IMG/VR virus record: IMGVR_UViG_3300021400_000072
Length of the DNA: 15,061 nt
Strand: one strand, 5' to 3'
Origin: a virus
The position numbers and the translations under genes were made by a program. How positions within the stretch are numbered: the first letter of the stretch is position 1; each line of letters opens with the position of its first letter. Under the pieces are notes generated by a model. It made no database searches, was not told where the DNA came from, and was given only the letters and a program-made list of their open reading frames with translations. Shown piece after piece: positions 1 to 14,012 of the stretch.

Positions 1-61
1 CAAAAACAAATCAATGTATTATACGGAATTGATAAATGGTAATTAAATGAGGTGAATAAAC

Positions 62-1486
62 ATGGCAAATAATGATAATATTATTTATGCTAAATTTAAT
101 CATGGTCGTGAAATAACGACCGATTCACGCTCTCAGTATGCTTATGGGCAGGTGTTGAAAATAAGCGGACTTCACCTGCCCGCAAGTTTTGATGCAGACA
201 TTTCAAACAAAGGTGATAAGCAAGCAAAAGTTGTAATAGGAACAGATAATGAATTACCAATAGATGATGCGTACTTCTTATCAGGCAAAGACGTTATCGT
301 AATGATCAATGTGCATGCCGCAGATAAAGATGGGCGTACTAAATATATTGTCAGAATTCCTGTTGAAAAACGTCCTATTCGTGCAGACATTGAATTAGAA
401 CCTGTCGAACAGGACGTTGTTTCTACAGCTATTGCCACTTTAAATGAAGCTGTTGAACAAACATCGGCAAGTGCGGAAAGTGCCGAAAATAGTGCAAATC
501 GTGCTCAACAGTCAGCAATAAAAGCAGAAACATCAGCAACTAACGCATCTAATTCAGAAACATTGGCACAACAGTATATGGAACGTGCTGAAACTGCCGC
601 CGAAAACGCGGAACAGTCTGAAACAAAAGCAAAAGCTAGTGAAGATAACGCTAAAGCATCTGAGACACATGCTGAACAAATTGCAAATGATATAGAACAA
701 TTTACAGAGCGTGCGGAAACCGCTTCCCGTAATGCAGAATCTTCTGCTACTACTGTTACAGAAAAAGCTAGTGAAGCGTTGAATAGTGCGAATATTGCAT
801 CAGCTAAAGCTAATGAAGCATCAACTTCCGCAACAAACGCACAGAACTCTGCGGATAATGCACAACAATTTGCTACAGGTGCACAAGAATCCGCAAATTC
901 TGCATTAGCATCCGCAAATAAAGCGTTAGTAAATGCAGAGAAAACGCAAAGTGATAAAGAAATAGTTGAACTCGCTAAGTCTAATGTGCTATCTGCTGTA
1001 GGTGAAGCGCAGAATTATGCTGAGTCCGCGCAATCTGCAAATCAAGCTATTCAAAATATGAATGTACAAGCAACCACATTAGAATCTGATTCTGATGCTA
1101 CTGTTGAAAAGTCTGTTGATTCTGTGACTGGCACAGTCACTCTTACATATGGTATCCCTAAAGGAATCAAAGGCGAAAAGGGTGACACAGGAAATAAAGG
1201 CGATAAGGGCGATCCATTTGTTTACTCTGATTTTACTCCCGAACAGCTTGCTTCTCTTAAAGGTGAAAAAGGTGATAAGGGCGATAAAGGAGACCAAGGA
1301 ATTCAAGGTGAACAGGGAATTCAAGGTATTCAGGGTATAAAAGGAGATACTGGTAATTCTGGTGTATATATTGGGGATACCGAACCTACTGATCCGCAAA
1401 TAATAGTTTGGGTAGATACTTCAAAAAATGATGATACAAATAATACTGTGGGAGAAGCAATAGTAGGTAATGCTATAGTAGAATAA
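62..1486 (+). CDS. Tail fibre / baseplate-like structural protein: globular N-terminal domain, long Ala/Ser/Glu/Gln-rich low-complexity (coiled-coil-like) middle region, C-terminal collagen-like G-X-Y repeats (GDKGDTGNKGDKGDP ... GIQGEQGIQGIQGIKGDTG)
   Basis: 474-aa uninterrupted ORF; RBS gaggtg 7 nt upstream of ATG 62; stop TAA; collagen-like G-X-Y triplets visible in translation; architecture typical of phage fibre/receptor-binding proteins (inference). Confidence 0.6.
   Translation: MANNDNIIYAKFNHGREITTDSRSQYAYGQVLKISGLHLPASFDADISNKGDKQAKVVIGTDNELPIDDAYFLSGKDVIVMINVHAADKDGRTKYIVRIPVEKRPIRADIELEPVEQDVVSTAIATLNEAVEQTSASAESAENSANRAQQSAIKAETSATNASNSETLAQQYMERAETAAENAEQSETKAKASEDNAKASETHAEQIANDIEQFTERAETASRNAESSATTVTEKASEALNSANIASAKANEASTSATNAQNSADNAQQFATGAQESANSALASANKALVNAEKTQSDKEIVELAKSNVLSAVGEAQNYAESAQSANQAIQNMNVQATTLESDSDATVEKSVDSVTGTVTLTYGIPKGIKGEKGDTGNKGDKGDPFVYSDFTPEQLASLKGEKGDKGDKGDQGIQGEQGIQGIQGIKGDTGNSGVYIGDTEPTDPQIIVWVDTSKNDDTNNTVGEAIVGNAIVE
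1159..1370 (+). repeat. 9-bp periodic collagen-like (G-X-Y) coding repeats; a second block at 3049-3160
   Basis: ggtgataagggcgat / ggaattcaaggt units. Confidence 0.7.
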
Positions 1487-1501
1487 AAAGGAGATAATGA
1501 T

Positions 1502-2968
1502 ATGGCTTATATAAAAACTGTTTGGGAAAACGGTGACGTGATTACCAAAGAAAAATTAAATAATATAGAAGATGGAATCGCAAATGCTGGTGGCGGTGGA
1601 AGTCCAATGAAATCTACTACCCATGCAGAACTTTTGGCGATGCGTAACGCTGGGACGTTGACACCGGGAATGCAGTACCGTATCACAGACTATGTTTGTA
1701 CCACTACACAGGAAGAGTCAAGGGCGGTATCGCATCCCTTTGATATTATCGTTGTTGCGGACGATGCATCGACATTAAATGAAAATGCCCGTGCGTGCTT
1801 GCATGAGGGCGATACCTATTATACAGCCGAAAACCACTCAGCAAACCTTGAGGCGTGGGAGTTGAAATACTGTATCGACAACGACGGGGATCGTTTCGCG
1901 TGGGCAGATGCTACCAACGGCAAGGGCGTCATCTTTTGGATGAAAGATGAACGTGGCAACGAGTGCCCTTATGACTTTAAACAGATTCAGTTTAAACGGT
2001 ATAAAATCACAGAATGTACCGTGCAGAGTCTTGTTGGAATGTTAACTGCTCTTGAACACGGGAAGGCTATCACGGCAGTTGATGAGGCCAACCCGGTATG
2101 GGTCTATACATTCAGCGTTTATGATCCAGAGGCTGAGACACCGACTTATGAGGACGGGTCTGTTGCTGTGATGAATGAGGCTATGGGTTGTATAGTTTAT
2201 GGTAACGTCATTAAATGTTATCTAAACTACGCCGATATGACAGAGTATACTGGGCCGTATGTCAATTATTTGAACAATATTGTTTTCGACAACACCTTTG
2301 GGAAGCTTTGTTACAACAACGCCTTTGAGAACGGTTGCAATAGCAATACCTTTTCGAACAGTTTCACTAACAACACCTTTGGTGGCGAATGTAGTAGAAA
2401 CACCTTTGGGAAAAATTGCAATAGAAACACCTTTGGTAATTATTTCAGCGGCAACACCTTTGGGAGCAATTTCATCAGCAACACATTTGGGCACACTTGC
2501 AGTGGCAATACTTTTTCGGACAGTTGCAGTATGAATAGCCTCAGAAACGGTTGCGGTAGCAATACCTTTGGGAAAGGTTGCACTAACAACACCTTTGGCG
2601 GTTACTGCACTGATAACACCTTCGGGGAAAATTGCGCTAACAACACCTTCGGGGAAAATTGCGCTAACAACACCTTTGGGGACCGTTGTTACAGCAACAC
2701 CTTTGGGGAGTATTGTGGTGGCAACACCTTTGGGGAGTATTGTAGGGGCAACACCTTTGGGGAGTATTGCATATTCATTAATATACCGGCTGGAACCAAT
2801 GCATCACCTAAATGGTTTTATCATATCCTCTCTGGCACAAGAGGTACAAGTTCAGCCCCTCTTACAATCCCCGGTGAAGGTGGTAATAACTACGTAACAT
2901 ATGTTGGCTTAGACTCTAGCGGTGAACTTAAAACGTGGGTTCCCGCAGATTTAGTTACTTCACCGTAA
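1502..2968 (+). CDS. Structural (tail fibre/spike-like) protein with ~22 tandem nonapeptide repeats NTFGxxCxx (predicted beta-solenoid-like repeat region), globular N- and C-terminal parts
   Basis: 488-aa ORF; RBS aaaggagataatg; stop TAA; highly regular 27-nt DNA periodicity 2290-2770 producing NTFG(E/K/G)xC.. repeats. Confidence 0.55.
   Translation: MAYIKTVWENGDVITKEKLNNIEDGIANAGGGGSPMKSTTHAELLAMRNAGTLTPGMQYRITDYVCTTTQEESRAVSHPFDIIVVADDASTLNENARACLHEGDTYYTAENHSANLEAWELKYCIDNDGDRFAWADATNGKGVIFWMKDERGNECPYDFKQIQFKRYKITECTVQSLVGMLTALEHGKAITAVDEANPVWVYTFSVYDPEAETPTYEDGSVAVMNEAMGCIVYGNVIKCYLNYADMTEYTGPYVNYLNNIVFDNTFGKLCYNNAFENGCNSNTFSNSFTNNTFGGECSRNTFGKNCNRNTFGNYFSGNTFGSNFISNTFGHTCSGNTFSDSCSMNSLRNGCGSNTFGKGCTNNTFGGYCTDNTFGENCANNTFGENCANNTFGDRCYSNTFGEYCGGNTFGEYCRGNTFGEYCIFINIPAGTNASPKWFYHILSGTRGTSSAPLTIPGEGGNNYVTYVGLDSSGELKTWVPADLVTSP
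2290..2770 (+). repeat. Tandem 27-bp coding repeats (nonapeptide NTFGxxCxx) inside gene 1502..2968
   Basis: Regular periodicity of aacacctttgg-containing units; also explains the spurious overlapping ORFs in other frames. Confidence 0.8.
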
Positions 2969-2994
2969 TTTAAGAAAAAGTGAGGTGATTTAAC

Positions 2995-3399
2995 ATGAGT
3001 AAATTAAAAATAAAAGACAAAAACGGGAAATGGGTTGAAATTACTGGTATAAAGGGAGACAAGGGCGATACTGGTAAACAGGGTATCCAAGGTGAACGTG
3101 GAGAAAAAGGTGATAAAGGTGACACAGGTGCATCGGGTCGTGACGGTGTAGACGGCATCTCCCCGACCGTAACTATAACCCTCATCACAGGCGGTCACAG
3201 AATCACTATCACGGATAAGGACGGCACAAAGACGGCTGATGTGATGGACGGAACTACTCCAAGCCTTACCAACTATGTGCAGTTTACCGACCTTGCCACA
3301 ACATCCAGAGCAGGTGCAATGTCCGCACAGGATAAGAGCAGACTTGATGATGTGTATGCGGATTATTCAAGCGCACTTACAGCATTGGGGGTGATTTGA
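2995..3399 (+). CDS. Collagen-like (G-X-Y)n repeat protein, probable fibre component
   Basis: 134-aa ORF; RBS gtgaggtga; GIKGDKGDTGKQGIQGERGEKGDKGDTGASGRDGVDG collagen-like run; stop TGA immediately followed by next ATG (3401). Confidence 0.55.
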   Translation: MSKLKIKDKNGKWVEITGIKGDKGDTGKQGIQGERGEKGDKGDTGASGRDGVDGISPTVTITLITGGHRITITDKDGTKTADVMDGTTPSLTNYVQFTDLATTSRAGAMSAQDKSRLDDVYADYSSALTALGVI

Positions 3400-3400
3400 T

Positions 3401-4075
3401 ATGGCAACTCCATTAACAGATAGCATCAATGCCTTGACCACTTATGCTAATGATGTCACAGGGGCATCGGATACAACATTGTCGGATGCAGTGCATACAC
3501 TTGGGAGTGGGTATGGCGGTTCAGCAACTCTCATCACCAAAACCATCACCGCCAATGGCACATATTCCGCAAGTGATGATTCCGCAGATGGATATTCAGA
3601 GGTTACGGTAAATGTACCAAGCAGTGGATCATCTGCATGGACTAATGTTGCGGAAACGAGTTATTATGTTAGTACGACATCAACGACCACAGAAACGGTG
3701 GACACATGGGCAACAGGACATAGCGAGATATGGACAAGGTCTAAGTGGGTGTATGTTCGCATAAGGGACACGGCAGGAAAAAGAAATGACTATTTTTATG
3801 GAAGCGATCAATTTTTTATGATTCCTTCCACTACTTCGACATCAACAACGTCTGGTATTCGGTATTATATGAGATGTAATTCAGACGGAATTTATTTTGC
3901 TAGTTCAACATCTGGAACAGCTGGATTCGGAGTGTACGCTGATACGCTTTACTCAGACGGTAGAATAAGAATCCGTAAAAGATATAGCAGTAATGCTTCT
4001 TTTACCGTTGACGGCACATACAAAGTCGAAGTCTACCTTCTTGACCCGCCAACAGGCGCACCAATCTTTGAATAA
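3401..4075 (+). CDS. Ser/Thr-rich hypothetical protein, likely distal fibre/structural domain
   Basis: 224-aa ORF translationally coupled to upstream gene (TGATATG overlap-type junction); stop TAA. Confidence 0.45.
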   Translation: MATPLTDSINALTTYANDVTGASDTTLSDAVHTLGSGYGGSATLITKTITANGTYSASDDSADGYSEVTVNVPSSGSSAWTNVAETSYYVSTTSTTTETVDTWATGHSEIWTRSKWVYVRIRDTAGKRNDYFYGSDQFFMIPSTTSTSTTSGIRYYMRCNSDGIYFASSTSGTAGFGVYADTLYSDGRIRIRKRYSSNASFTVDGTYKVEVYLLDPPTGAPIFE

Positions 4076-4092
4076 CGAAAGGAGAATTATAA

Positions 4093-4334
4093 TGTATCAG
4101 TATTACATTACCGAAGTCCGCAAGACTATAACAGGCGAATTTGAGCATGACAACTATTGGGTCTACGATGAGGACGAGCAGACCGCAAGGCTCAAGGGCG
4201 AAGGAAAATTCCACGAAGTTCTGAGCCGTGCGGCAACGTCCACATTTGCAGAGCACGGAGCAATCCTGTTTACATCCACATGCTATCCCATCAAGCACGA
4301 ATGCTATACACATGGAGCAGAGCAGGAAGAATAA
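4093..4334 (+). CDS. Small hypothetical protein (80 aa), paralogue of 4528..4803
   Basis: RBS aaaggag 7 nt upstream of ATG 4093 (the ORF-track start at 3993 lies inside the upstream gene and lacks an RBS); MYQYYITEV...ARLKGEGKFHEVLS...FTS motif shared with paralogue; stop TAA. Confidence 0.5.
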
Positions 4335-4343
4335 GGAGACGCC

Positions 4344-4513
4344 ATGCTGACATACTGCTTTGAGACCACAGCATCAGCAGGTACGGAGATACATCAAACC
4401 TGTATGCCACATATTCTAATGGCACACTGACTATTGATACGGTATCCAACACGTCAGCAAGGCGATTTCGTTCGGGACAGACGTATAATTATACGTTGAT
4501 TAAGTGGACATAA
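4344..4513 (+). pseudogene. Possible frameshifted or decayed small gene between the two paralogues (ATG 4344 with good RBS runs only 28 codons; an overlapping start-less frame stays open from 4364 to TAA 4511)
   Basis: RBS aaggagacgcc + ATG 4344; frame 0 stops at TGA 4428; alternate frame open 4364-4513 without a start codon. Confidence 0.2.
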
Positions 4514-4527
4514 AGGAGGAAATAATT

Positions 4528-4803
4528 ATGACTCAATACTATATCATGGAACTTCAAAAATATGCGGACGGTTCTTACGGTGACATTAAACACATTGCGT
4601 ATGACGAAGACCCCACAAGAGCAAGACTTAAAGGTGAAAGTAAGTTTTATGAAATTTTATCGGCAGCCGCTGTAAGTGAATTGCCAGTACATGCCGCTAT
4701 CATGTTTACATCTGAGGGTGTACCTGTAATGAATCAGAGGTACGTACATGCGATTCCGCAGGAAGAGGTTGAGCCTAAAGAGGAAACACCTGAAGATGAA
4801 TAA
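4528..4803 (+). CDS. Small hypothetical protein (91 aa), paralogue of 4093..4334
   Basis: RBS aaaggagg 8 nt upstream of ATG 4528 (the ORF-track start at 4504 would place the RBS inside the ORF); MTQYYIMEL...ARLKGESKFYEILS...FTS shared with paralogue; stop TAA. Confidence 0.5.
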   Translation: MTQYYIMELQKYADGSYGDIKHIAYDEDPTRARLKGESKFYEILSAAAVSELPVHAAIMFTSEGVPVMNQRYVHAIPQEEVEPKEETPEDE

Positions 4804-4873
4804 GTAATTAAATAAAAAATTTTTGCTTATAATGGACAAATTTTATAAATTCATTTAATTTAAAATTTATATA

Positions 4874-4921
4874 TTGTTGGAGGGGAGAATAAAACTTCCT
4901 TCCAACAAATGTATACATTTT
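4874..4921 (+). promoter_or_regulatory. 13-bp stem hairpin (ttgttggagggga ... ttccttccaacaa, two G-U) followed 8 nt later by a T5 run; weak terminator or leader structure just upstream of the TAG-containing gene block. Extended -10-like tgcttataat at 4822-4831 upstream.
   Basis: Direct inspection. Confidence 0.35.
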
Positions 4922-4945
4922 TAGAGATAAAAGGAGAATGATAAA

Positions 4946-5443
4946 ATGGCCAATTTTAATCAAAATGGGATGAATGGTATAATACCTAATCAATATCCCT
5001 ATACTAACAATTTAATAATGAATACTCCTTACGATAATTATCTTGGGAGAAATAATGTAACTGTAAACGCAAATGGTCAAAATTATCCAAATCAATTTTT
5101 AAAATGCAGGCCAGTTGCATCTAAAGAATAGGCAAGAGCCGCTCAGATAGATTTAGATGGCTCTCTATGGGTTTTTACTGATGTTGGAAATTAGAAAATT
5201 TATACTAAACAAATAAATTATGATGGAACAGCAACTTTTAAAACCTATGCTTTAACTGCTGATGAAAATCCTTATAATTCTTCTGAATATGTTACAAAAG
5301 ATGAATTTAATAGTGTAATACAAAGTTTAATGGCGGCAATTCAGTCTCAACCCGTTACCCAAAAAGTTTAGACCGAATCCGCATAGAATAATAAAAATAC
5401 TGGACAAAGCAGTAATAATAATTTTATAGTTAAGAGGGTATAA
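4946..5443 (+). CDS. Hypothetical N/Q/Y-rich protein (165 aa) containing 4 in-frame TAG codons (5129, 5192, 5369, 5384) that would have to be read as sense
   Basis: RBS aaaggagaatg; frame stays open through four TAGs with no TAA/TGA until TAA 5441, in roughly 70% AT DNA; next gene's ATG 6 nt downstream. Confidence 0.5.
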
Positions 5444-5448
5444 TTATT

Positions 5449-5679
5449 ATGAATGTAAATCCGATTCAATTAATAAATATGATAAAAAACGGTCAAAATC
5501 CTCAACAGCTTATGATGAATATTTTAGGACAAAATAATCCTATTCTTAAAAATGCAATGAATCTAGCGCAAAACGGGAACACATCTGCTTTATAGATGAT
5601 TGCACGTAATTTAGCACAACAAAGAGGTTTGGATTTTGATACAGAATTTGCAAAATTTAAAAATTATTTAAATCAATAA
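5449..5679 (+). CDS. Small hypothetical protein (76 aa) with 1 in-frame TAG (5593)
   Basis: RBS aagagggta; ATG 5449; single in-frame TAG then continues to TAA 5677; followed 12 nt later by next gene with RBS. Confidence 0.45.
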
Positions 5680-5691
5680 TGGGAGATACAA

Positions 5692-6459
5692 ATGTTTAAT
5701 AATAATACTAATGGATATTCCTTATCTGATATTGCAGCCGCAACAGGCAATAATAATAATGGTTTTGGTTTTAATGGCGATGGAGCCTGGATCTTTTTCT
5801 TATTTATTTTAATGCTTGCGGGCGGTTGGAATAATAACGGTTTCGGTGGAAATGGACAGCCTGCTGTTATAGCTGATGTTCAACGTGGTTTTGATCAGAG
5901 TGCCCTTATGAATAGTTTAAACGGTGTGACTGCCGCAATAAATACTGGCTTTTCAAATGCGGAAGTATCTCGTTGTAATTCACAAGCGAATATCCTACAA
6001 ACATTAAACAATAATCAAGCAAATCTATCTACTCAATTAAATACAATAGCAATGAATCAACAGAACTGTTGTTGTTAGAATAGAGCGGGATTAGCTGATC
6101 TGAAGTATACTGTAGCTACAGAAGCATGTGCAGACCGCACAGCAGTTACAGATGCTTTAAGAGATGTAATTGCATCAAATACAGCAAATACACAGGCCAT
6201 TCTTGATAAACTTTGTCAACAATAGATTGAATCTCTCAAGGCTCAGAATCAACAGCTTCAGATGCAGGGTTATCTTGCTAATTTAGCAGCTTCTCAAAAT
6301 GCTCAAACTGGACAGATTCTTGCAGATAACGCGGCTCAGACAGCTACATTACGTCAGGCCTTAAATCCTACTCCTATCCCTGCATATGTTGTTGCAAATC
6401 CTAATGGATGCAACTGCGGAAACTGGAACGGATGTTGCGGTAACGGTTTTTATAACTGA
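5692..6459 (+). CDS. N/G/C-rich membrane-anchored protein (255 aa) with 2 in-frame TAGs (6076, 6223). N-terminus carries a Gly/Asn-rich segment followed by a hydrophobic helix (GFGFNGDGAWIFFLFILMLAGGW), resembling the tiny-TM, Gly-rich spore-associated peptides of Firmicutes. C-terminus is Cys-rich (NPNGCNCGNWNGCCGNGFYN).
   Basis: RBS gggagatacaa + ATG 5692; ORF-track pieces 5692..6078 and 6262..6459 are in the same frame and joined only by two TAGs; stop TGA 6457. Confidence 0.55.
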
Positions 6460-6474
6460 TAAGGAGGTTAATCC

Positions 6475-6930
6475 ATGGCTAGTTATGTAACAACTGCTGA
6501 TGCAACAGTAGCTTTAAATGGAACGATTCCCTTTAATAGTGTTTCTATTCCCTGTAACAAAGGTAATATTATTCCTATTGTTCCTGGAATTCTTAACTTA
6601 AATGGTAATACTTCTAATCGTTTTGCAAGATATGATATTACTCTCCAAGGAAATATTCAAATCCCTACAGGCGGAACAGTTACTCCTATAGCAATTGGAA
6701 TTACTCTTAATGGGGTAGTAATACCGTAGAGTGTTGCAATCGTAACACCTGCGGCCGCAGGAGAATATTGGCATGTAAATACTACAGCGTCTGTAACTGT
6801 TCCTTGTGGCTGTTGTTTAACCGTATCTGGAGCATATATAGACGGTACTGAAGATGACCCAGCTATAACTCCTACCCCTTCTATTTTAGTTAGACGTGGG
6901 GCTTCATTAACAGGAATCAGGACAGCATAA
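6475..6930 (+). CDS. Hypothetical protein (151 aa) with 1 in-frame TAG (6727)
   Basis: RBS aaggaggttaatcc + ATG 6475; frame continues past TAG 6727 to TAA 6928; antisense ORF 6657..7016 is therefore spurious. Confidence 0.5.
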
Positions 6931-6940
6931 GGAGGAAAAT

Positions 6941-7504
6941 ATGGGAACTGAAGCATTAAAAATGATGAAAGACCAACTAATGAGTTGTGTACAAAGTCAA
7001 CTTGGTGATATATCAAAGGCAGATGCCCATGAACTTGGTGAAGCTGTTGATATGATAAAAGATTTGTCTGAAGCGATATACTATTGTACTATTACTGATT
7101 CAATGGAAAAAGCAGAAGAAAAAGAAAAAACTTCTGTTAATAATATAAATTATTATACCACCCCATATCCAGATTATAGAAATATGGAACGCAATAATGG
7201 ATATATGTATTATTCTGGCGGGAATGGTGGTAATATGGGAGGTAATTCTAGCTCCAATGGCGGAACTACCTCTTATTATACTGAAATGATGAGAGATCCC
7301 CGTTAGGGAAGATCTCCAATAAGAAGAAGAATGTATATGGAAGGTAAAGAAATGCATAAAGATACAAGTTCTCAACTTCATGAACTAGAAGCATACCTTC
7401 AAGAACTTTCTTCAGACATAACAGAAATGATTAAAGACGCATCACCAGAAGAGAGAACTACATTACGTCAAAAAATGACCACATTAGCTAATAAAATTAA
7501 CTAA
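6941..7504 (+). CDS. Hypothetical protein (187 aa) with Gly/Asn/Tyr-rich low-complexity segment and 1 in-frame TAG (7304)
   Basis: RBS aaggaggaaaat + ATG 6941; frame open past TAG 7304 to TAA 7502. Confidence 0.5.
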
Positions 7505-7505
7505 T

Positions 7506-7820
7506 ATGTTTTTAATCAATAATGTTTATTGGAAACTCTCTTTTGTTGCTCCTAATTTTCCTTTATTACAAAGATTAAACGGAGAATTTTCAATAGGAGC
7601 ATGTGATAATCTTACTCGAACAATTTATATAAACGAAACGTTACAAGGAGATTTATTGCGGAAGGTACTTTGCCACGAAATAACACATGCTGCAATGTTT
7701 TCTTATAATGTTAATCTTTCTCTTGAGCAATAGGAATTGATAGCAGATTTAATTTCTACATATGGAGATGAGATTATTTATATAACAAATAAAATTTTTA
7801 ATAAATTAGGAAATATATAA
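7506..7820 (+). CDS. Small HExxH zinc-metallopeptidase-like protein (ImmA/IrrE-type motif VLCHEITHAAM) with 1 in-frame TAG (7731)
   Basis: ATG 7506 abuts upstream TAA (translational coupling); HEITH motif in translation; frame continues through TAG 7731 to TAA 7818; strong terminator follows. Confidence 0.45.
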
Positions 7821-7824
7821 ATTG

Positions 7825-7866
7825 ATAGCTGTCGGTTCTACTTTTAACCGACAGCTATTTTTTTTT
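7825..7866 (+). terminator. Rho-independent terminator (13-bp perfect stem atagctgtcggtt/aaccgacagctat, 7-nt loop, T9 tract)
   Basis: Direct inspection; lies right after the TAA of the HExxH gene. Confidence 0.85.
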
Positions 7867-7890
7867 AGAATTATAAAAAAGGGGAGATAA

Positions 7891-8400
7891 ATGAATCTAT
7901 TATAGACAATTGAAAAAATTATTCATCAAATTCGTCCTTTTGAAGGTATTAGTTCTTGTGTAATTTTTATTTTATTTATAATCGGCACAGTAATACAAAT
8001 TTCTCCTATAAAAATTAATCCTTGGGATTTTTTATTAGGGTGGATAGGAGAAAGATTTAATTCTGGAATTAATAAAAAAGTAGGGCAGTTAGAAAAGAAA
8101 ATAGATTAGCATATAGAAAGTAGTAAGAATAAAGATTTAAAATAGCAAAGATAGTATATTATTTCCTTTGTCGATGAAGGTGTTAATGGAAAACGACATA
8201 CAAAAGAATCTTTCTAGAATGCGATACGAGCTTGTGATGCATATGAGAAATATGTTCGTTAGAATGATATTGAAAATGGCGTTATCGTATCTTCTATTAG
8301 TGCCATTAGATTAAAATATGAACAACATTTAATTAATGCTGATTTTGCAACAGGCGAACATTATGTTGAAAATGCTAAATAGATGCAAAATGAAAACTGA
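7891..8400 (+). CDS. Membrane protein, holin-like: N-terminal hydrophobic helix, then coiled-coil/charged region. Contains 7 in-frame TAGs (7903, 8107, 8143, 8152, 8215, 8260, 8380).
   Basis: RBS aaaaggggagataa + ATG 7891; 169-codon frame with 7 TAG and zero TAA/TGA until TGA 8398; reads naturally if TAG is Gln (KIDQHIESS..KQQRQYI..FQNAIRACDAYEKYVRQND); flanked by terminators on both sides. Confidence 0.55.
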
Positions 8401-8470: not shown

Positions 8471-8519
8471 CAAAAAGCCTCGATATGAGTCATATTCATA
8501 TCGAGGCTTTATTTTTTTA
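8471..8519. terminator. Bidirectional rho-independent terminator (15-bp perfect stem aaagcctcgatatga/tcatatcgaggcttt flanked by A5 and T7 runs) between convergent genes
   Basis: Direct inspection; separates + holin-like gene and - vWA gene. Confidence 0.85.
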
Positions 8520-10022
8520 TCTAATTACGGCATATCTTTCACTATTAATAGCTTCAAGCATTAAGTCGTAACCTGTCTTACCAGTAATAACTTGCTTGAA
8601 AATAGTAGGAGACATACCGCTTACAAACGATACATTAGGACCTGCATCCAGGATTGTATTCTGGCGGGCATCCACATTCCAATAGACCAGCTTAGGAAGC
8701 TGTAGGCCATAAGCTGCCCACTTCTGACGAATCTTCTCCATCTCTGTTGAAGCAGAACGCTTTGTCCAATGACTATCACTCCAATAACCAGTACCACTAT
8801 CAATTTCCATATCAGAAATAACTACAATGGTCTTAGGAATGTCACTCTGCTTAACACCTCTCTTAGTTGCTGTCTTTAGAAGTAAATCAAATACAGCTTC
8901 TAGGTTAGTATTATCACAAAGATTTGTCTTGTAGATACGGCGAGCCTTATCTACAAAATCAATACCTTCTGTCTTAATCAGCTGAGGATGTGAAGCAAAA
9001 CTAATATAGTAATTCTTAAAAGGACCACCAATACGTTCTGCGCAATACAAACCTAGACTGATTGCTACGTTAAGAGGAGCCGCCGCATCTTTACCAGTCA
9101 TAGAACCAGAAGTATCTACGACACACATCATGCTACAATCCTTACCATTAAGATAATCAGGAAGATTATCCCAATACTTATTAATCATAGCACGTTCAGT
9201 TTCACTAAGAGCCTCAAAGTTGTAAGACCATGTTGAAGCCTTAACTGCCTTAGCTACCACTTCATAAGGGTAAAGTACAGAAGCATTAACCTTTGTATTC
9301 TTATCTTTTGCAAAAGATTCATACTTCTTAGCGATAATATCACGTCTTGCAAAAGCATTACGATAAATAATACCTGCGCGAGAAGGAATCTTATCAAACT
9401 CAATCTTATCCCATTCGTTGGCGGACATCAGTCTTTCAAGAACATTAATCTTAACTCTTAGCTTTGAAAGCATCTGACGATACTGCTTAGAAGTAACTCC
9501 TAAATACTGTCTAATCTTCTTTGCTCTTGCAATTGTTTCCTTACTTGAAGCATTTTCAGAAGGAAGCCACTTAGCGATAAGGCTAATACCATTCTTCTTA
9601 CATGCCATATCCTCACGAAGCTGCTTTTCAATAAGAGCCATTACATTCTTTTCAACAGGAGTGTCGAAAAGTTCGAACAGGTCATCATATCTACCATATT
9701 CAGGAAGATATTCAATCAAGTTACGGGCGCGGGCAGGCTTGTTCTCTGCCAACCAGCGGAAGCATGTACGGAAGAATCTACGTTCACCCTGACCACCACG
9801 GCAGTCACGAATATAGAATAGACACTTCAGTGCAAGAACTGAATCCTCTTCAAAGGCGTTCTTGAAAAGAAGGATACAATCTTCGTCTGTACGCTTACGA
9901 TAAGCGGCACCCATAGCAAACAATGTATAAACGTCACTATTTAACTTTTTATAAGCGAGTGCTCCATTCTCTGTTCTCTTGTAATTGAAATCGTTTGAAA
10001 GCTGATTCATAAATGTATTCAT
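8517..10022 (-). CDS. vWA-domain protein with MIDAS motif (VVDTSGSM). Its N-terminal alpha-helical module resembles the DUF2828 family and the TROVE (Ro60-like) module (TENGALAY...LFAMGAAYRK).
   Basis: 501-aa uninterrupted ORF; DxSGS MIDAS signature near residue 300; N-terminal motif pattern similar to the Ro60 N-x-x-G-x-x-A-F...L-F/I-x-L-G motif; family assignment from memory, not searched. Confidence 0.7.
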   Translation of the reverse strand: MNTFMNQLSNDFNYKRTENGALAYKKLNSDVYTLFAMGAAYRKRTDEDCILLFKNAFEEDSVLALKCLFYIRDCRGGQGERRFFRTCFRWLAENKPARARNLIEYLPEYGRYDDLFELFDTPVEKNVMALIEKQLREDMACKKNGISLIAKWLPSENASSKETIARAKKIRQYLGVTSKQYRQMLSKLRVKINVLERLMSANEWDKIEFDKIPSRAGIIYRNAFARRDIIAKKYESFAKDKNTKVNASVLYPYEVVAKAVKASTWSYNFEALSETERAMINKYWDNLPDYLNGKDCSMMCVVDTSGSMTGKDAAAPLNVAISLGLYCAERIGGPFKNYYISFASHPQLIKTEGIDFVDKARRIYKTNLCDNTNLEAVFDLLLKTATKRGVKQSDIPKTIVVISDMEIDSGTGYWSDSHWTKRSASTEMEKIRQKWAAYGLQLPKLVYWNVDARQNTILDAGPNVSFVSGMSPTIFKQVITGKTGYDLMLEAINSERYAVIR

Positions 10023-10592: not shown

Positions 10593-10597
10593 ATAAT

Positions 10598-10667
10598 TGC
10601 GCCACTACGAATCGAACGTAAATCTCCCCCGTATGCAAGGGGGTATGTTACCATTACACCACGGCGC
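10598..10667 (-). tRNA. tRNA-like with 8-nt anticodon loop TTGCATAC (contains CAT; Met/Ile2-like with one extra nucleotide). Possible pseudogene or noncanonical tRNA.
   Basis: Acceptor GCGCCGT/GTGGCGC (two G-U pairs); anticodon stem CCCCC/GGGGG enclosing 8 nt; 4-bp T-stem; positions 8-9 are GG. Confidence 0.4.
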
Positions 10668-10772
10668 GAGCATTTATCATATTTTTTGTTTGTTTACGGT
10701 TAGCTACTCCGCACCCTAAACAACTTTTTTGATAAATGTTAATACAATACATTAATTAACTTTTGTACTAAA

Positions 10773-10845
10773 CAGGAGCGGAAGGATTCGAACCTTCATA
10801 ATCACGGTGTTGGAGACCGTTGCTGTACCATTGAGCCACGCCCCT
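10773..10845 (-). tRNA. tRNA-Trp (anticodon CCA)
   Basis: Perfect T-stem GAAGG/CCTTC with TTCGAAT loop; anticodon stem ACGGT/ACCGT, loop CTCCAAC; 7-bp acceptor with one G-U. Confidence 0.7.
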
Positions 10846-11552: not shown

Positions 11553-11635
11553 AGCCAGCAATAGGATTTGAACCTATATCGTTTTAGGCCTTACACTCCT
11601 TGGGGGAGCCGCTTTACCAATTAAGCTATGCTGAC
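11553..11635 (-). tRNA. Type II (long variable arm) tRNA-like, anticodon CAA (Leu) by position but with poor anticodon-stem pairing; possibly degenerate
   Basis: Good acceptor (GTCAGCA/TGCTGGC), D-arm GCTT/AAGC and T-arm ATAGG/CCTAT. The anticodon region folds best as a CTCC/GGAG stem with a 5-nt loop. The variable arm forms no clear hairpin. Confidence 0.4.
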
Positions 11636-11715: not shown

Positions 11716-11734
11716 ATATACAAGAGACATTATT

Positions 11735-11806
11735 AGTAGACCGCGGGATTCGAACCCGCATATCAAAATTCGCAGTTTTGTATCTTATCCATTAGATTAA
11801 ATCCAT
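11735..11806 (-). tRNA. tRNA-like element with intact T-arm, anticodon arm (loop CTGCGAA, anticodon GCG) and D-arm, but a 5' acceptor strand that cannot pair with the 3' strand; probable pseudo-tRNA or tRNA mimic
   Basis: T-stem GCGGG/CCCGC, anticodon stem CAAAA/TTTTG, D-stem ATCT/AGAT all perfect; expected 5' strand GGTCTAC is absent (observed ATGGATT). Confidence 0.35.
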
Positions 11807-11884
11807 TAATTTTTTTTATTGCTGTGTGTCTCTTTATCAACTTTCTATATATATTATAATAAAAATTTTTATTTTTTTCAAATA

Positions 11885-13939: not shown

Positions 13940-14012
13940 TAGCCCGCCGGAGAATCGAACTCCGATTTCTGGTTTTAGAGACCAGCGTCTTAAACCGTTT
14001 GACCACCGGGCC
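13940..14012 (-). tRNA. Amber suppressor tRNA (anticodon CTA, decodes UAG); type I, amino-acid identity not determinable by eye
   Basis: Perfect 5-bp anticodon stem CTGGT/ACCAG with 7-nt loop CTCTAAA (U33, anticodon CUA, A37); perfect T-stem CGGAG/CTCCG with TTCGATT loop; acceptor 6/7 bp. Confidence 0.7.

Follow-up and report, generated by a model that had tools for sequence, protein, structure and literature searches.

A tail module without TAG codons borders TAG-rich late genes in a phage that most likely reads UAG as glutamate

INTRODUCTION

Amber-recoded phages that use genetic code 15 have been described among the crAss-like, Lak, Garnet/Amethyst/Topaz, and phAss-1 phages (bioRxiv 10.1101/2021.08.26.457843; Peters et al., PMC9523058; Babkin et al., PMC10607447), and TAG to glutamine (Gln, Q) and TGA to tryptophan (Trp) are the only changes observed where the code of a phage differs from that of its host (Borges et al., bioRxiv 10.1101/2021.08.26.457843). 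Here, we describe a 15,061-nucleotide (nt) stretch of viral DNA, IMG/VR record IMGVR_UViG_3300021400_000072 (hereafter, the window), in which tail fiber genes devoid of in-frame TAG are followed on the same strand by genes dense in TAG. Like code 15 phages, this phage, whose host uses the standard code, encodes a tRNA with the anticodon CUA [tRNA(CUA)], it has in-frame TAG in late and structural genes and none in early genes and the tRNA region, and its TAG content is very variable among genes and close relatives. Unlike in those phages, the suppressor has the body of a tRNA-Glu, TAG aligns with glutamate (Glu, E) rather than Gln, and the most TAG-biased genes are not lysis genes.

Tail fiber and host range modules are exchanged mosaically among tailed phages. 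The locus resembles such exchange in its collinear homology, its sharp breakpoints, the occurrence of sister phages with different fiber modules, and the presence of two small genes, g80 and g92, at module edges (genes are named for protein length in amino acids [aa], so that g474 encodes 474 aa and g250 encodes 250 aa). It departs from the usual case in that donor and recipient pools differ in code usage, and TAG content would act as a tracer of residence time. Contiguous blocks with or without a reassigned stop codon are also found in the multiple-code phages described with Mgcod, in which blockwise codes are usually read temporally, with early genes standard and late genes recoded (bioRxiv 10.1101/2022.06.29.495998). 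Our phage shares this block structure; unlike in the temporal reading, the block free of TAG is embedded in a late operon of uniform orientation, and its edges coincide with recombination breakpoints relative to TAG-free relatives. Among ciliate nuclear codes, UAG (and UAA) specifies Glu in peritrich code 30, and UAG is reassigned in phyllopharyngeans (PMC11687900, PMC10553269). The likeness lies in the route, from UAG to Glu via a mutated tRNA-Glu-type suppressor. The ciliate codes are eukaryotic, nuclear, and genome-wide and come with altered release factors, whereas here the reading would be imposed by a virus on a bacterial cell with the standard code and is used in only part of the phage genome. 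Our literature search, which misses most subscription journals, found no published TAG-to-Glu reassignment in phages.

RESULTS

Six plus-strand open reading frames (ORFs) of 474, 488, 134, 224, 80, and 92 aa occupy positions 62 to 4803 and comprise ~1,490 codons, including 46 CAA/CAG and 106 GAA/GAG codons and no in-frame TAG. Positions 4946 to 8400 hold seven ORFs, a cassette of six genes (4946 to 7820) and g169, that are open only when TAG is read through. A preliminary description of the sequence had reported a sharp switch in TAG usage here, with 17 TAGs in about 1,090 codons downstream; our recount gives 17 in 1,107 codons (4, 1, 2, 1, 1, 1, and 7 per gene, in order) and bears out the switch (Fisher's exact test, P = 4.7e-7 against all codons, 2.2e-4 against Gln codons, and 1.7e-8 against Glu codons). 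Under the standard code, 4946 to 8400 falls into fragments while 62 to 4803 stays intact. The absence of TAG from a standard ORF is trivial by definition; what is not trivial is the contrast with co-oriented neighbors on both sides.

The read-through ORFs are real genes because they are tightly packed (gaps of 2 to 70 nt), matches to PHROG families extend across the TAGs, orthologs occur in 25 to 80 other contigs with conservation persisting downstream of the TAGs, TAG is already treated as sense in the public gene calls deposited for the source contig, and the phage encodes a tRNA(CUA). Within the ~58 kb of the wider contig that we examined (see below), no plausible gene needs a TAG stop, and all called genes end in TAA or TGA. 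With in-frame TAG, a tRNA(CUA), and no TAG stops in these ~58 kb, this is an amber-suppressing, stop-codon-recoded phage. Three of the 17 TAGs (5369, 5384, and 8380) fall within C-terminal tails of variable sequence and could act as leaky ends.

To determine which amino acid TAG represents, we used a Codetta-style analysis of 80 loci anchored on the cassette gene g255, which yielded 45 reliably aligned TAG columns, and an independent set of 152 columns from large, non-cassette genes of recoded relatives. In the cassette set, the majority residue was E in 26 columns and Q in 4 (20 and 4, respectively, among strongly conserved columns), with log-likelihoods of −89 for E, −200 for D, and −204 for Q. 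The independent set gave −419, −551, and −585, so that E exceeded Q by 115 and 165 nats in the two sets. Of the columns conserved as E, 61% contain TAG, against 10% of those conserved as Q and 0 to 2% of D, K, or N columns. By comparison, sense Q occurs in 12% of E-conserved columns, and if TAG were Gln, E-to-Q changes would have to yield TAG five times as often as CAA/CAG. Sense E occurs in 18% of Q-conserved columns; thus, the few TAGs on Q sites are as expected from ordinary Q-to-E change if TAG is Glu. Codon usage agrees: the Glu codons of the TAG-free island described below are GAA 188, GAG 56, and TAG 1, and those of the cassette and g169 are GAA 44, GAG 4, and TAG 17. Where TAG is used, GAG is depleted (P = 0.02) and CAG is not (P = 0.73).

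Individual genes show the same pattern (L numbers denote loci of relatives in IMG/VR or, for L267 and L268, of the phage's own contig). The TAG at 5129 in g165 (4946 to 5443, plus strand; further TAGs at 5192, 5369, and 5384) faces E in 15/15 orthologs with a sense codon, as do the TAGs at 5593 in g76 (5449 to 5679, plus strand), 7304 in g187 (6941 to 7504, plus strand), and 7731 in g104 (7506 to 7820, plus strand), each in 11/11. The two TAG columns of g255 (5692 to 6459, plus strand; TAGs at 6076 and 6223) hold E in 57/70 and E 45/K 23; g151 (6475 to 6930, plus strand) has one TAG, at 6727. The late operon's last gene, g169 (7891 to 8400, plus strand), has seven (7903, 8107, 8143, 8152, 8215, 8260, and 8380). 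Its homologs in TAG-free relatives have E at three of these columns. Among 115 more distant homologs, of which three checked at the DNA level are standard-code, its TAG columns hold E in 111/115, E in 93/115, and E 55/K 38, with K 88/E 16, Q 59/N 24, and D 41/Q 23/E 15 at further columns; the Q that a public database shows at TAG for recoded g169 members is an artifact of code 15 translation. Motif glutamates are also replaced: the E of the g104 HExxH motif (E in 15/15) is TAG in L182, L187, and L190, and that of g255 VATEACADR (E in 71/71) is TAG in two genomes. In a resolvase of relatives (phrog_827, 2e-18), the MEEVRP motif reads TAG-TAG, TAG-E, or E-TAG in 9/11 genomes, and the acidic motif DDEADA also contains TAG. 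Collectively, these statistical and comparative data indicate that UAG is most likely decoded as Glu. The preliminary description had taken TAG to be Gln, a premise contradicted by the columns (E 26 versus Q 4), the log-likelihoods, the depletion of GAG, and the tRNA body described below; neither a predominance of Gln at TAG in homologs nor a tRNA-Gln-type suppressor, the hallmarks of code 15, was found.

The resolvases of L186:8552-9040 (minus strand), L192, L194, L197, L198, and L218 have a tandem TAG-TAG at the MEEV motif and 7 to 11 TAGs per ~162 codons, the highest TAG density observed. We had considered TAG-dense 162-aa ORFs adjoining the cassette in relatives as g169 homologs; they are actually Holliday junction resolvases.

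The amber suppressor tRNA lies at 13940 to 14012 on the minus strand (ARAGORN; Rfam RF00005, 55.6 bits) and has a Firmicutes tRNA-Glu body. In the Rfam register, which we adopted over the ARAGORN register (U1-A72, tRNA-Gln-like), it has G1.U72, U11-A24, a 4-nt variable loop, and A73, and CCA is not encoded; it carries the tRNA-Glu signature GGCCCG.UGGUCAA.CGGUU.AAGAC (acceptor/D-arm), together with U11-A24 and the 4-nt variable loop. Among 573 tRNAs surveyed in 120 Firmicutes loci, whose motif-based selection biases the denominator but not the isotype result, the 5′-half motif of the suppressor occurs in tRNA-Glu only (116/116; 103 UUC and 13 CUC) and in 0/27 tRNA-Gln. Among bacterial tRNAs, the suppressor is closest to Clostridia tRNA-Glu(CUC), at 77 to 78% (best tRNA-Gln, 62%), and its sole annotated phage relatives by blastn are tRNA-Glu. 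From CUC, one anticodon change (base 36, C to A) gives CUA; at pair 1-72, G.U replaces G-C. The suppressor is also present in sister genomes, and the exact Glu-type pattern was found in only four IMG/VR contigs; the suppressors of L186-type genomes were not found within the loci fetched. Judging from general knowledge of the enzymes, we infer that the tRNA would be charged with Glu by the host glutamyl-tRNA synthetase (GluRS), without amidation by GatCAB.

Other unusual tRNAs occur in related phages. A sister-phage tRNA at L007:2186-2257 has a UCA anticodon, predicted to decode TGA; it shares 76% identity with the window tRNA-Arg(GCG) at 11734 to 11807 (minus strand), occupies the same place in the array, and may be an opal suppressor derived from an Arg tRNA. 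More distant relatives have other CUA tRNAs, one Gln-like (L031:7267-7336, 70 nt) and one with a long extra arm or intron (L039:4535-4629, 95 nt). The TAG columns of L031 are Q/N/S-like and not E-like, and related phages may decode TAG differently.

The window is contained in an 87-kb scaffold (ENA ERZ28612966 scaffold_493) and in a 143,040-bp contig (ENA ERZ1756080 NODE_31222), which we reached via an exact-sequence cluster look-up; byte identity of the two was confirmed over 8 kb. Sisters of this contig include IMGVR_UViG_3300021399_000006 and 3300037400_003528. Record names suggest sheep rumen as the sample source, and the virus is a tailed phage of ~143 kb, with a host that is probably a Clostridia-class Firmicute. 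Megablast of the window against GenBank phages gave no matches, and no close or annotated complete relative is present there; the best GenBank phage relative of the DUF2828 protein encoded in the window is 40% identical.

We mapped TAG against GAA+GAG over ~58 kb of this contig (negative coordinates are positions upstream of the window start). A minus-strand block from −26,442 to −19,666, with an r1t holin, RNA repair genes, and a gene resembling that for major vault protein (MVP), has 0 TAGs against 190 GAA+GAG codons. The plus-strand block from −19,503 to −10,058, with genes of 955, 691, 244, 835, 98, and 273 aa, has 63 against 191 (24.8%). The next plus-strand block, from −10,037 to 4,803 (g806 to g92), has 1 against 244 (0.4%), and the cassette and g169 (4,946 to 8,400, plus strand) have 17 against 48 (26.2%). 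The third block, which we refer to as the island, differs strongly from both flanking blocks (Fisher's exact test, P = 2e-19 and 7e-12), and all three share one orientation. PHROG matches identify tail proteins in the upstream TAG-rich block, and the tail genes just upstream of the island contain 18, 20, 14, and 6 TAGs. Downstream of g169, the plausible genes of the DUF2828 and tRNA region contain no TAG, and past the tRNA array TAG reappears in some genes. The preliminary description expected TAG to be unevenly spread over the genome; the per-gene count agrees for these ~58 kb and adds that the TAG-free segment is an island between blocks in which TAG makes up ~25% of Glu-type codons.

The island spans 14.8 kb and consists of g806, a giant adhesin, g196, a CW_7 lysin, four fiber genes, g80, and g92. 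The TAG-free stretch in the window is thus the right-hand 4.8 kb of a 14.8-kb island within a co-oriented, recoded late operon. The portion upstream of the window encodes the tail protein g806, a 2,051-aa PblB-like adhesin, a 196-aa protein, and the CW_7 lysin. Its left breakpoint falls at the border of the 273-aa gene and g806, where TAG faces a conserved E of TAG-free relatives. The backbone carries its own holin and GH25/CHAP endolysin elsewhere; the CW_7 lysin is a second lysin, brought by the island, and holds the same position in TAG-free temperate relatives.

Comparison with relatives places the right-hand joint. L262 is collinear with window positions 32 to 4800 at 81.9% nt identity and then runs straight into a TAG-free g169 homolog (65% nt), without the cassette, which is a 3.1-kb insertion between g92 and g169 with a terminator (7824 to 7859) at its end. 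Collinearity with TAG-free relatives stops at 4800, and homology to cassette-bearing recoded relatives begins at ~4815 to 5090. L186 aligns to the window only at 5090 to 7799, with homology to L186-type genomes ending at 7799 to 7820. Across the right joint, identity to TAG-free relatives steps from 80 to 96% down to 54 to 64%, the latter being the identity of their g169 homologs. The upstream TAG-rich genes and the cassette are 65 to 75% identical (nt; cassette, 72 to 75%) to heavily recoded L186/L190-type genomes, with which the phage has several TAG sites in common. Sharp breakpoints as expected of an exchanged module are thus seen against L262 (32 to 4800), against L186 (5090 to 7799), and at the left edge between the 273-aa gene and g806.

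TAG-free relatives include L171 to L177, L262, and L264, with no sense TAG, and L047 and L050, which have the same architecture and no sense TAG and use TAG as a stop. L262 and L264 avoid TAG fully, with no sense TAG and TAG in 0/44 stop codons, and they may represent a TAG-unassigned stage or have a suppressor located elsewhere.

The closest sisters (L003, L006, and L007) likewise combine a TAG-rich cassette with fiber genes that have no TAG. In L003/L179, the cassette is 93% identical (nt) and the tail island is different (g806, 68%), likewise TAG-free. Other recoded genomes that share the cassette show the reverse, with giant flanking genes that have 22 to 31 TAGs and a TAG-poor cassette; therefore, TAG density is patchy in the clade and not tied to cassette function. 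A cassette-specific enrichment of TAG was dropped on these grounds and because the phage's own upstream tail genes are TAG-rich. In another heavily recoded relative, a 478-aa gene with a GC content at third codon positions (GC3) of 0.49 and no TAG lies among genes with 13 to 19 TAGs (L190:13700-15136, minus strand); it looks like a small, compositionally distinct, TAG-free insertion.

The preliminary description proposed a comparison of GC content and codon usage between the two modules. GAG is depleted in the TAG block; GC3 is high across 1502 to 4334, and L262 and L264 have the same block with the same GC3. The high GC3 is therefore an old property and no proof of very recent import. A nested recent import of 1502 to 4334, suggested by its GC3 and its absence from L003, was dropped accordingly.

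The remaining features of the window are as follows. The island enters at its left end with the last 42 nt (1 to 42, plus strand) of g250, the 250-aa CW_7-repeat lysin (Pfam CW_7, 1e-11; PHROG endolysin families; 0 TAGs). The collagen-like tail fiber gene g474 (62 to 1486, plus strand; PHROG tail fiber families, Pfam Collagen; GC3, 0.21) has 29 Gln codons and no TAG, and its product is 81 to 87% identical to those of TAG-free relatives L171, L262, and L264. It is followed by g488 (1502 to 2968, plus strand; 0 TAGs; GC3, 0.47), a repeat-rich (NTFG) putative receptor-binding protein with homologs in TAG-free L262 and L264 at 67 to 70% identity and equally high GC3. A long run of imperfect 9-residue repeats (NTFGxxCxx) in g488 produces many internal blastn self-matches, and g488 belongs to a very large family, with 2,978 database proteins at E ≤ 1e-10. 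Next come g134, a small collagen-like fiber protein (2995 to 3399, plus strand; 0 TAGs; 96% identity in L262), and the fiber module protein g224 (3401 to 4075, plus strand; 0 TAGs; 78% identity in L262). The small proteins g80 (4092 to 4334, plus strand) and g92 (4525 to 4803, plus strand), the latter being the final island gene, are ~45 to 50% identical paralogs that start MxQYYIxE; g92 has 80% identity in L262 and L264, where the g169 homolog lies directly 3′ of it. Copies of g80/g92 recur at module edges in L047, L050, L175, L262, and L264, and these proteins may be fiber chaperones or recombination linkers. The right-hand junction of the island, placed by blastn breakpoints and sequence, is a spacer at 4804 to 4945 with a hairpin at ~4877 to 4909.

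No function could be assigned to g165, g76, g187, or g224 from Pfam or PHROG, and PHROG matches of g255 (phrog_16490), g151 (phrog_20016), and g169 (phrog_37604) were only to families of unknown function. The g255 protein has one transmembrane (TM) helix and a Cys-rich coiled coil, and the g255-g151 pair is widespread among standard-code Clostridia phages. The g104 product is a small HExxH zincin-like protein (phrog_1233; subthreshold DUF6782, SprT, and M78 matches). The cassette is closed by an intrinsic-terminator-like hairpin (7824 to 7859, plus strand; 14-bp stem and T run). The all-alpha g169 protein has an N-terminal TM helix; its AlphaFold model (predicted local distance difference test score, 63.5) matched only uncharacterized phage proteins in a Foldseek search of BFVD. 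A bidirectional terminator (8474 to 8510) separates the late operon from the convergent gene for a DUF2828/DUF7788 (Ro/TROVE-like, vWA) protein (8517 to 10022, minus strand; 0 TAGs). An array with 17 tRNAs in the window and at least 37 on the contig follows (10352 to 15053, minus strand), with small TAG-free ORFs between the tRNAs.

Several observations stand apart from the TAG contrast. ARAGORN assigns four-base anticodons to two tRNAs, gcat at window positions 10596 to 10669 (minus strand) and tttg at L268:4860-4931, which could be unusual loops, frameshift-suppressor-like tRNAs, or prediction artifacts. A second tRNA-Trp(CCA) at 11553 to 11635 (minus strand) is 83 nt long, compared with 73 nt for the copy at 10773 to 10845, and may have an insertion or intron in its variable region. 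The RNA-repair-like set (metallophosphatase, P-loop kinase, and RNA ligase) at L267:998-6349, equivalent to window positions of about −25,600 to −20,270, is adjoined by an 833-aa protein with a Pfam match to MVP_shoulder; all are TAG-free and lie beside the r1t holin. In a 178-kb relative (L269:17184-19552), a 294-aa ORF with faint LAGLIDADG matches interrupts the DUF2828 gene and divides it into parts of 147 and 357 aa, which suggests a homing endonuclease, intron, or intein insertion.

DISCUSSION

The boundary in TAG usage is best explained, with a probability that we put at roughly 0.65, as the edge of a tail module of TAG-free ancestry that recombined into a phage reading UAG as Glu. The phage would read UAG as sense through its own tRNA(CUA), derived from tRNA-Glu, and in its long-recoded genes TAG would have largely replaced GAG, reaching ~25% of Glu-type codons. 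The island would come from a family of distal tail and host range modules circulating in phages without any TAG; after recombination placed such a module in the recoded backbone, drift from GAG to TAG would have produced a single TAG. The gap from 4803 to 4946 would then be the right-hand recombination joint, at the edge of a separately mobile cassette (4946 to 7820) with a long history in recoded genomes. That sister L003 combines a 93% identical cassette with a different TAG-free island suggests repeated exchange. We infer the direction and recency of the transfer. One of two options in the preliminary description, acquisition of the fiber module from a standard-code genome, is thereby favored as regards import, but the unit would be the whole 14.8-kb island, collinear with TAG-free relatives and flanked by TAG-rich genes, and not the fiber genes alone.

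Several points weigh against this explanation, and some would fit selection instead of ancestry. The share of the contig inspected is partial, and the nearest donor-type sequence sampled is only ~82% identical (nt), so that "recent" rests on the absence of TAG accumulation. The left joint is blurred by two TAGs in the 3′ portion of the 273-aa gene, where homology to TAG-free relatives has already begun; TAG-free relatives such as L262 and L264, lacking TAG stops, are possibly TAG-avoiding rather than truly standard-code. Moreover, both our phage and L003/L179 have TAG-free distal tail regions beside a TAG-rich cassette. If distal tail, lysin, and fiber genes were intolerant of incomplete suppression, and TAG accumulated only in genes for which less or later translation does no harm or is of use, the island could be vertically inherited and its boundary functional. 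L188/L189 and L185, too, have TAG-free large genes upstream of the cassette, g169 has gained seven TAGs even though it is syntenic with TAG-free homologs, and gene-family-specific bias is documented in other phages (Borges et al., bioRxiv 10.1101/2021.08.26.457843). We nevertheless consider selection unlikely: TAG-rich genes of the same orientation flank the island within a single tail operon, the 955-, 691-, and 835-aa genes of the same genome carry 14 to 20 TAGs, and proteins of 1,100 to 1,700 aa in relatives carry 22 to 31; therefore, neither length nor tail function forbids TAG. In addition, the closest relatives of the island are in genomes without TAG and without the cassette, and identity falls abruptly over the joint. 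A narrower functional account, in which the TAG-rich block is a lysis or late-regulatory cassette serving as a lysis timer (after Borges et al.), finds some appeal in the TM helices of g169 and g255, in Solobacterium phage SMO_1P, where the g169 homolog is the last late gene, directly after the endolysin, and in Butyrivibrio phage Ceridwen, where the g255-g151 pair follows the lysis genes. It is much less probable than selection: Pfam, PHROG, and Foldseek show a lysis function for none of the cassette genes, TAG supplies ~25% of Glu-type codons in the tail genes just as it does in the cassette, and in L186-type relatives it is the cassette that is poor in TAG. Recoding is not biased toward lysis genes among those counted, the r1t holin (0 TAGs, within a 6.8-kb TAG-free block) and the CW_7 lysin (0 TAGs); the GH25/CHAP endolysin is only partly on the locus and was not counted. 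The other option in the preliminary description, that recoding targets small late, membrane, or lysis genes, fails on these two genes and on upstream tail genes with up to 20 TAGs.

The reading of TAG itself has two competitors. TAG could be Gln, as in crAss-like, Lak, and phAss-1 phages, with its alignment to Glu reflecting tolerated E-to-Q changes. In Escherichia coli, tRNAs with a CUA anticodon tend to receive Gln from glutaminyl-tRNA synthetase (GlnRS). TAG to Gln is also the sole amber reassignment reported for phages, the distant relative L031 has a Gln-like CUA tRNA, and TAG falls on conserved Gln in 4/45 cassette columns and in 8 strong columns of the 152; some Gln insertion at TAG is possible, a further point against an exclusive Glu reading. 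Ordinary code 15 is nonetheless highly improbable, marginally more so than a lysis timer, given the margin of E over Q in two independent column sets, the frequency of TAG on conserved E relative to that of sense Q, TAG at the motif glutamates of HExxH and MEEV, a tRNA body of Glu rather than Gln type, and depletion of GAG rather than CAG. That TAG is a true stop and the ORFs at 4946 to 8400 are fragments or pseudogenes would account for the short ORFs obtained under the standard code, but this has a negligible chance of being correct, as dozens of genomes have orthologs whose conservation continues through and past the TAGs, PHROG matches span them, gene spacing is tight, and a tRNA(CUA) is encoded.

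More broadly, a clade of large Clostridia phages, apparently from rumen and gut, in which UAG means Glu by way of tRNA-Glu(CUA) and host GluRS, uncatalogued for viruses and bacteria, is a proposition on which we place even odds. Pipelines translate TAG-recoded phages with code 15, and the public protein collection does so for this contig; if TAG is Glu in the clade, hundreds of residues are mistranslated, motif carboxylates included, and annotation and structure prediction are distorted. A natural Glu-inserting amber suppressor for Firmicutes could also serve synthetic biology. If the reassignment is true, stop-codon takeover by phages extends beyond the routes to Gln and Trp, for which the rationale has been promiscuity of GlnRS and tryptophanyl-tRNA synthetase, and UAG as Glu gives a testable link to the aminoacylation pathways of the host (GluRS and GatCAB); should the hosts lack GlnRS, Glu would be an accessible identity for an amber suppressor. 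Blocks that differ in code can be scars of recombination between recoded and nonrecoded phages and not expression programs, which cautions against reading all of them as regulation. If so, the TAG content of each module would be a molecular clock of its time under the altered code, and TAG density may offer a tool for dating module exchange.

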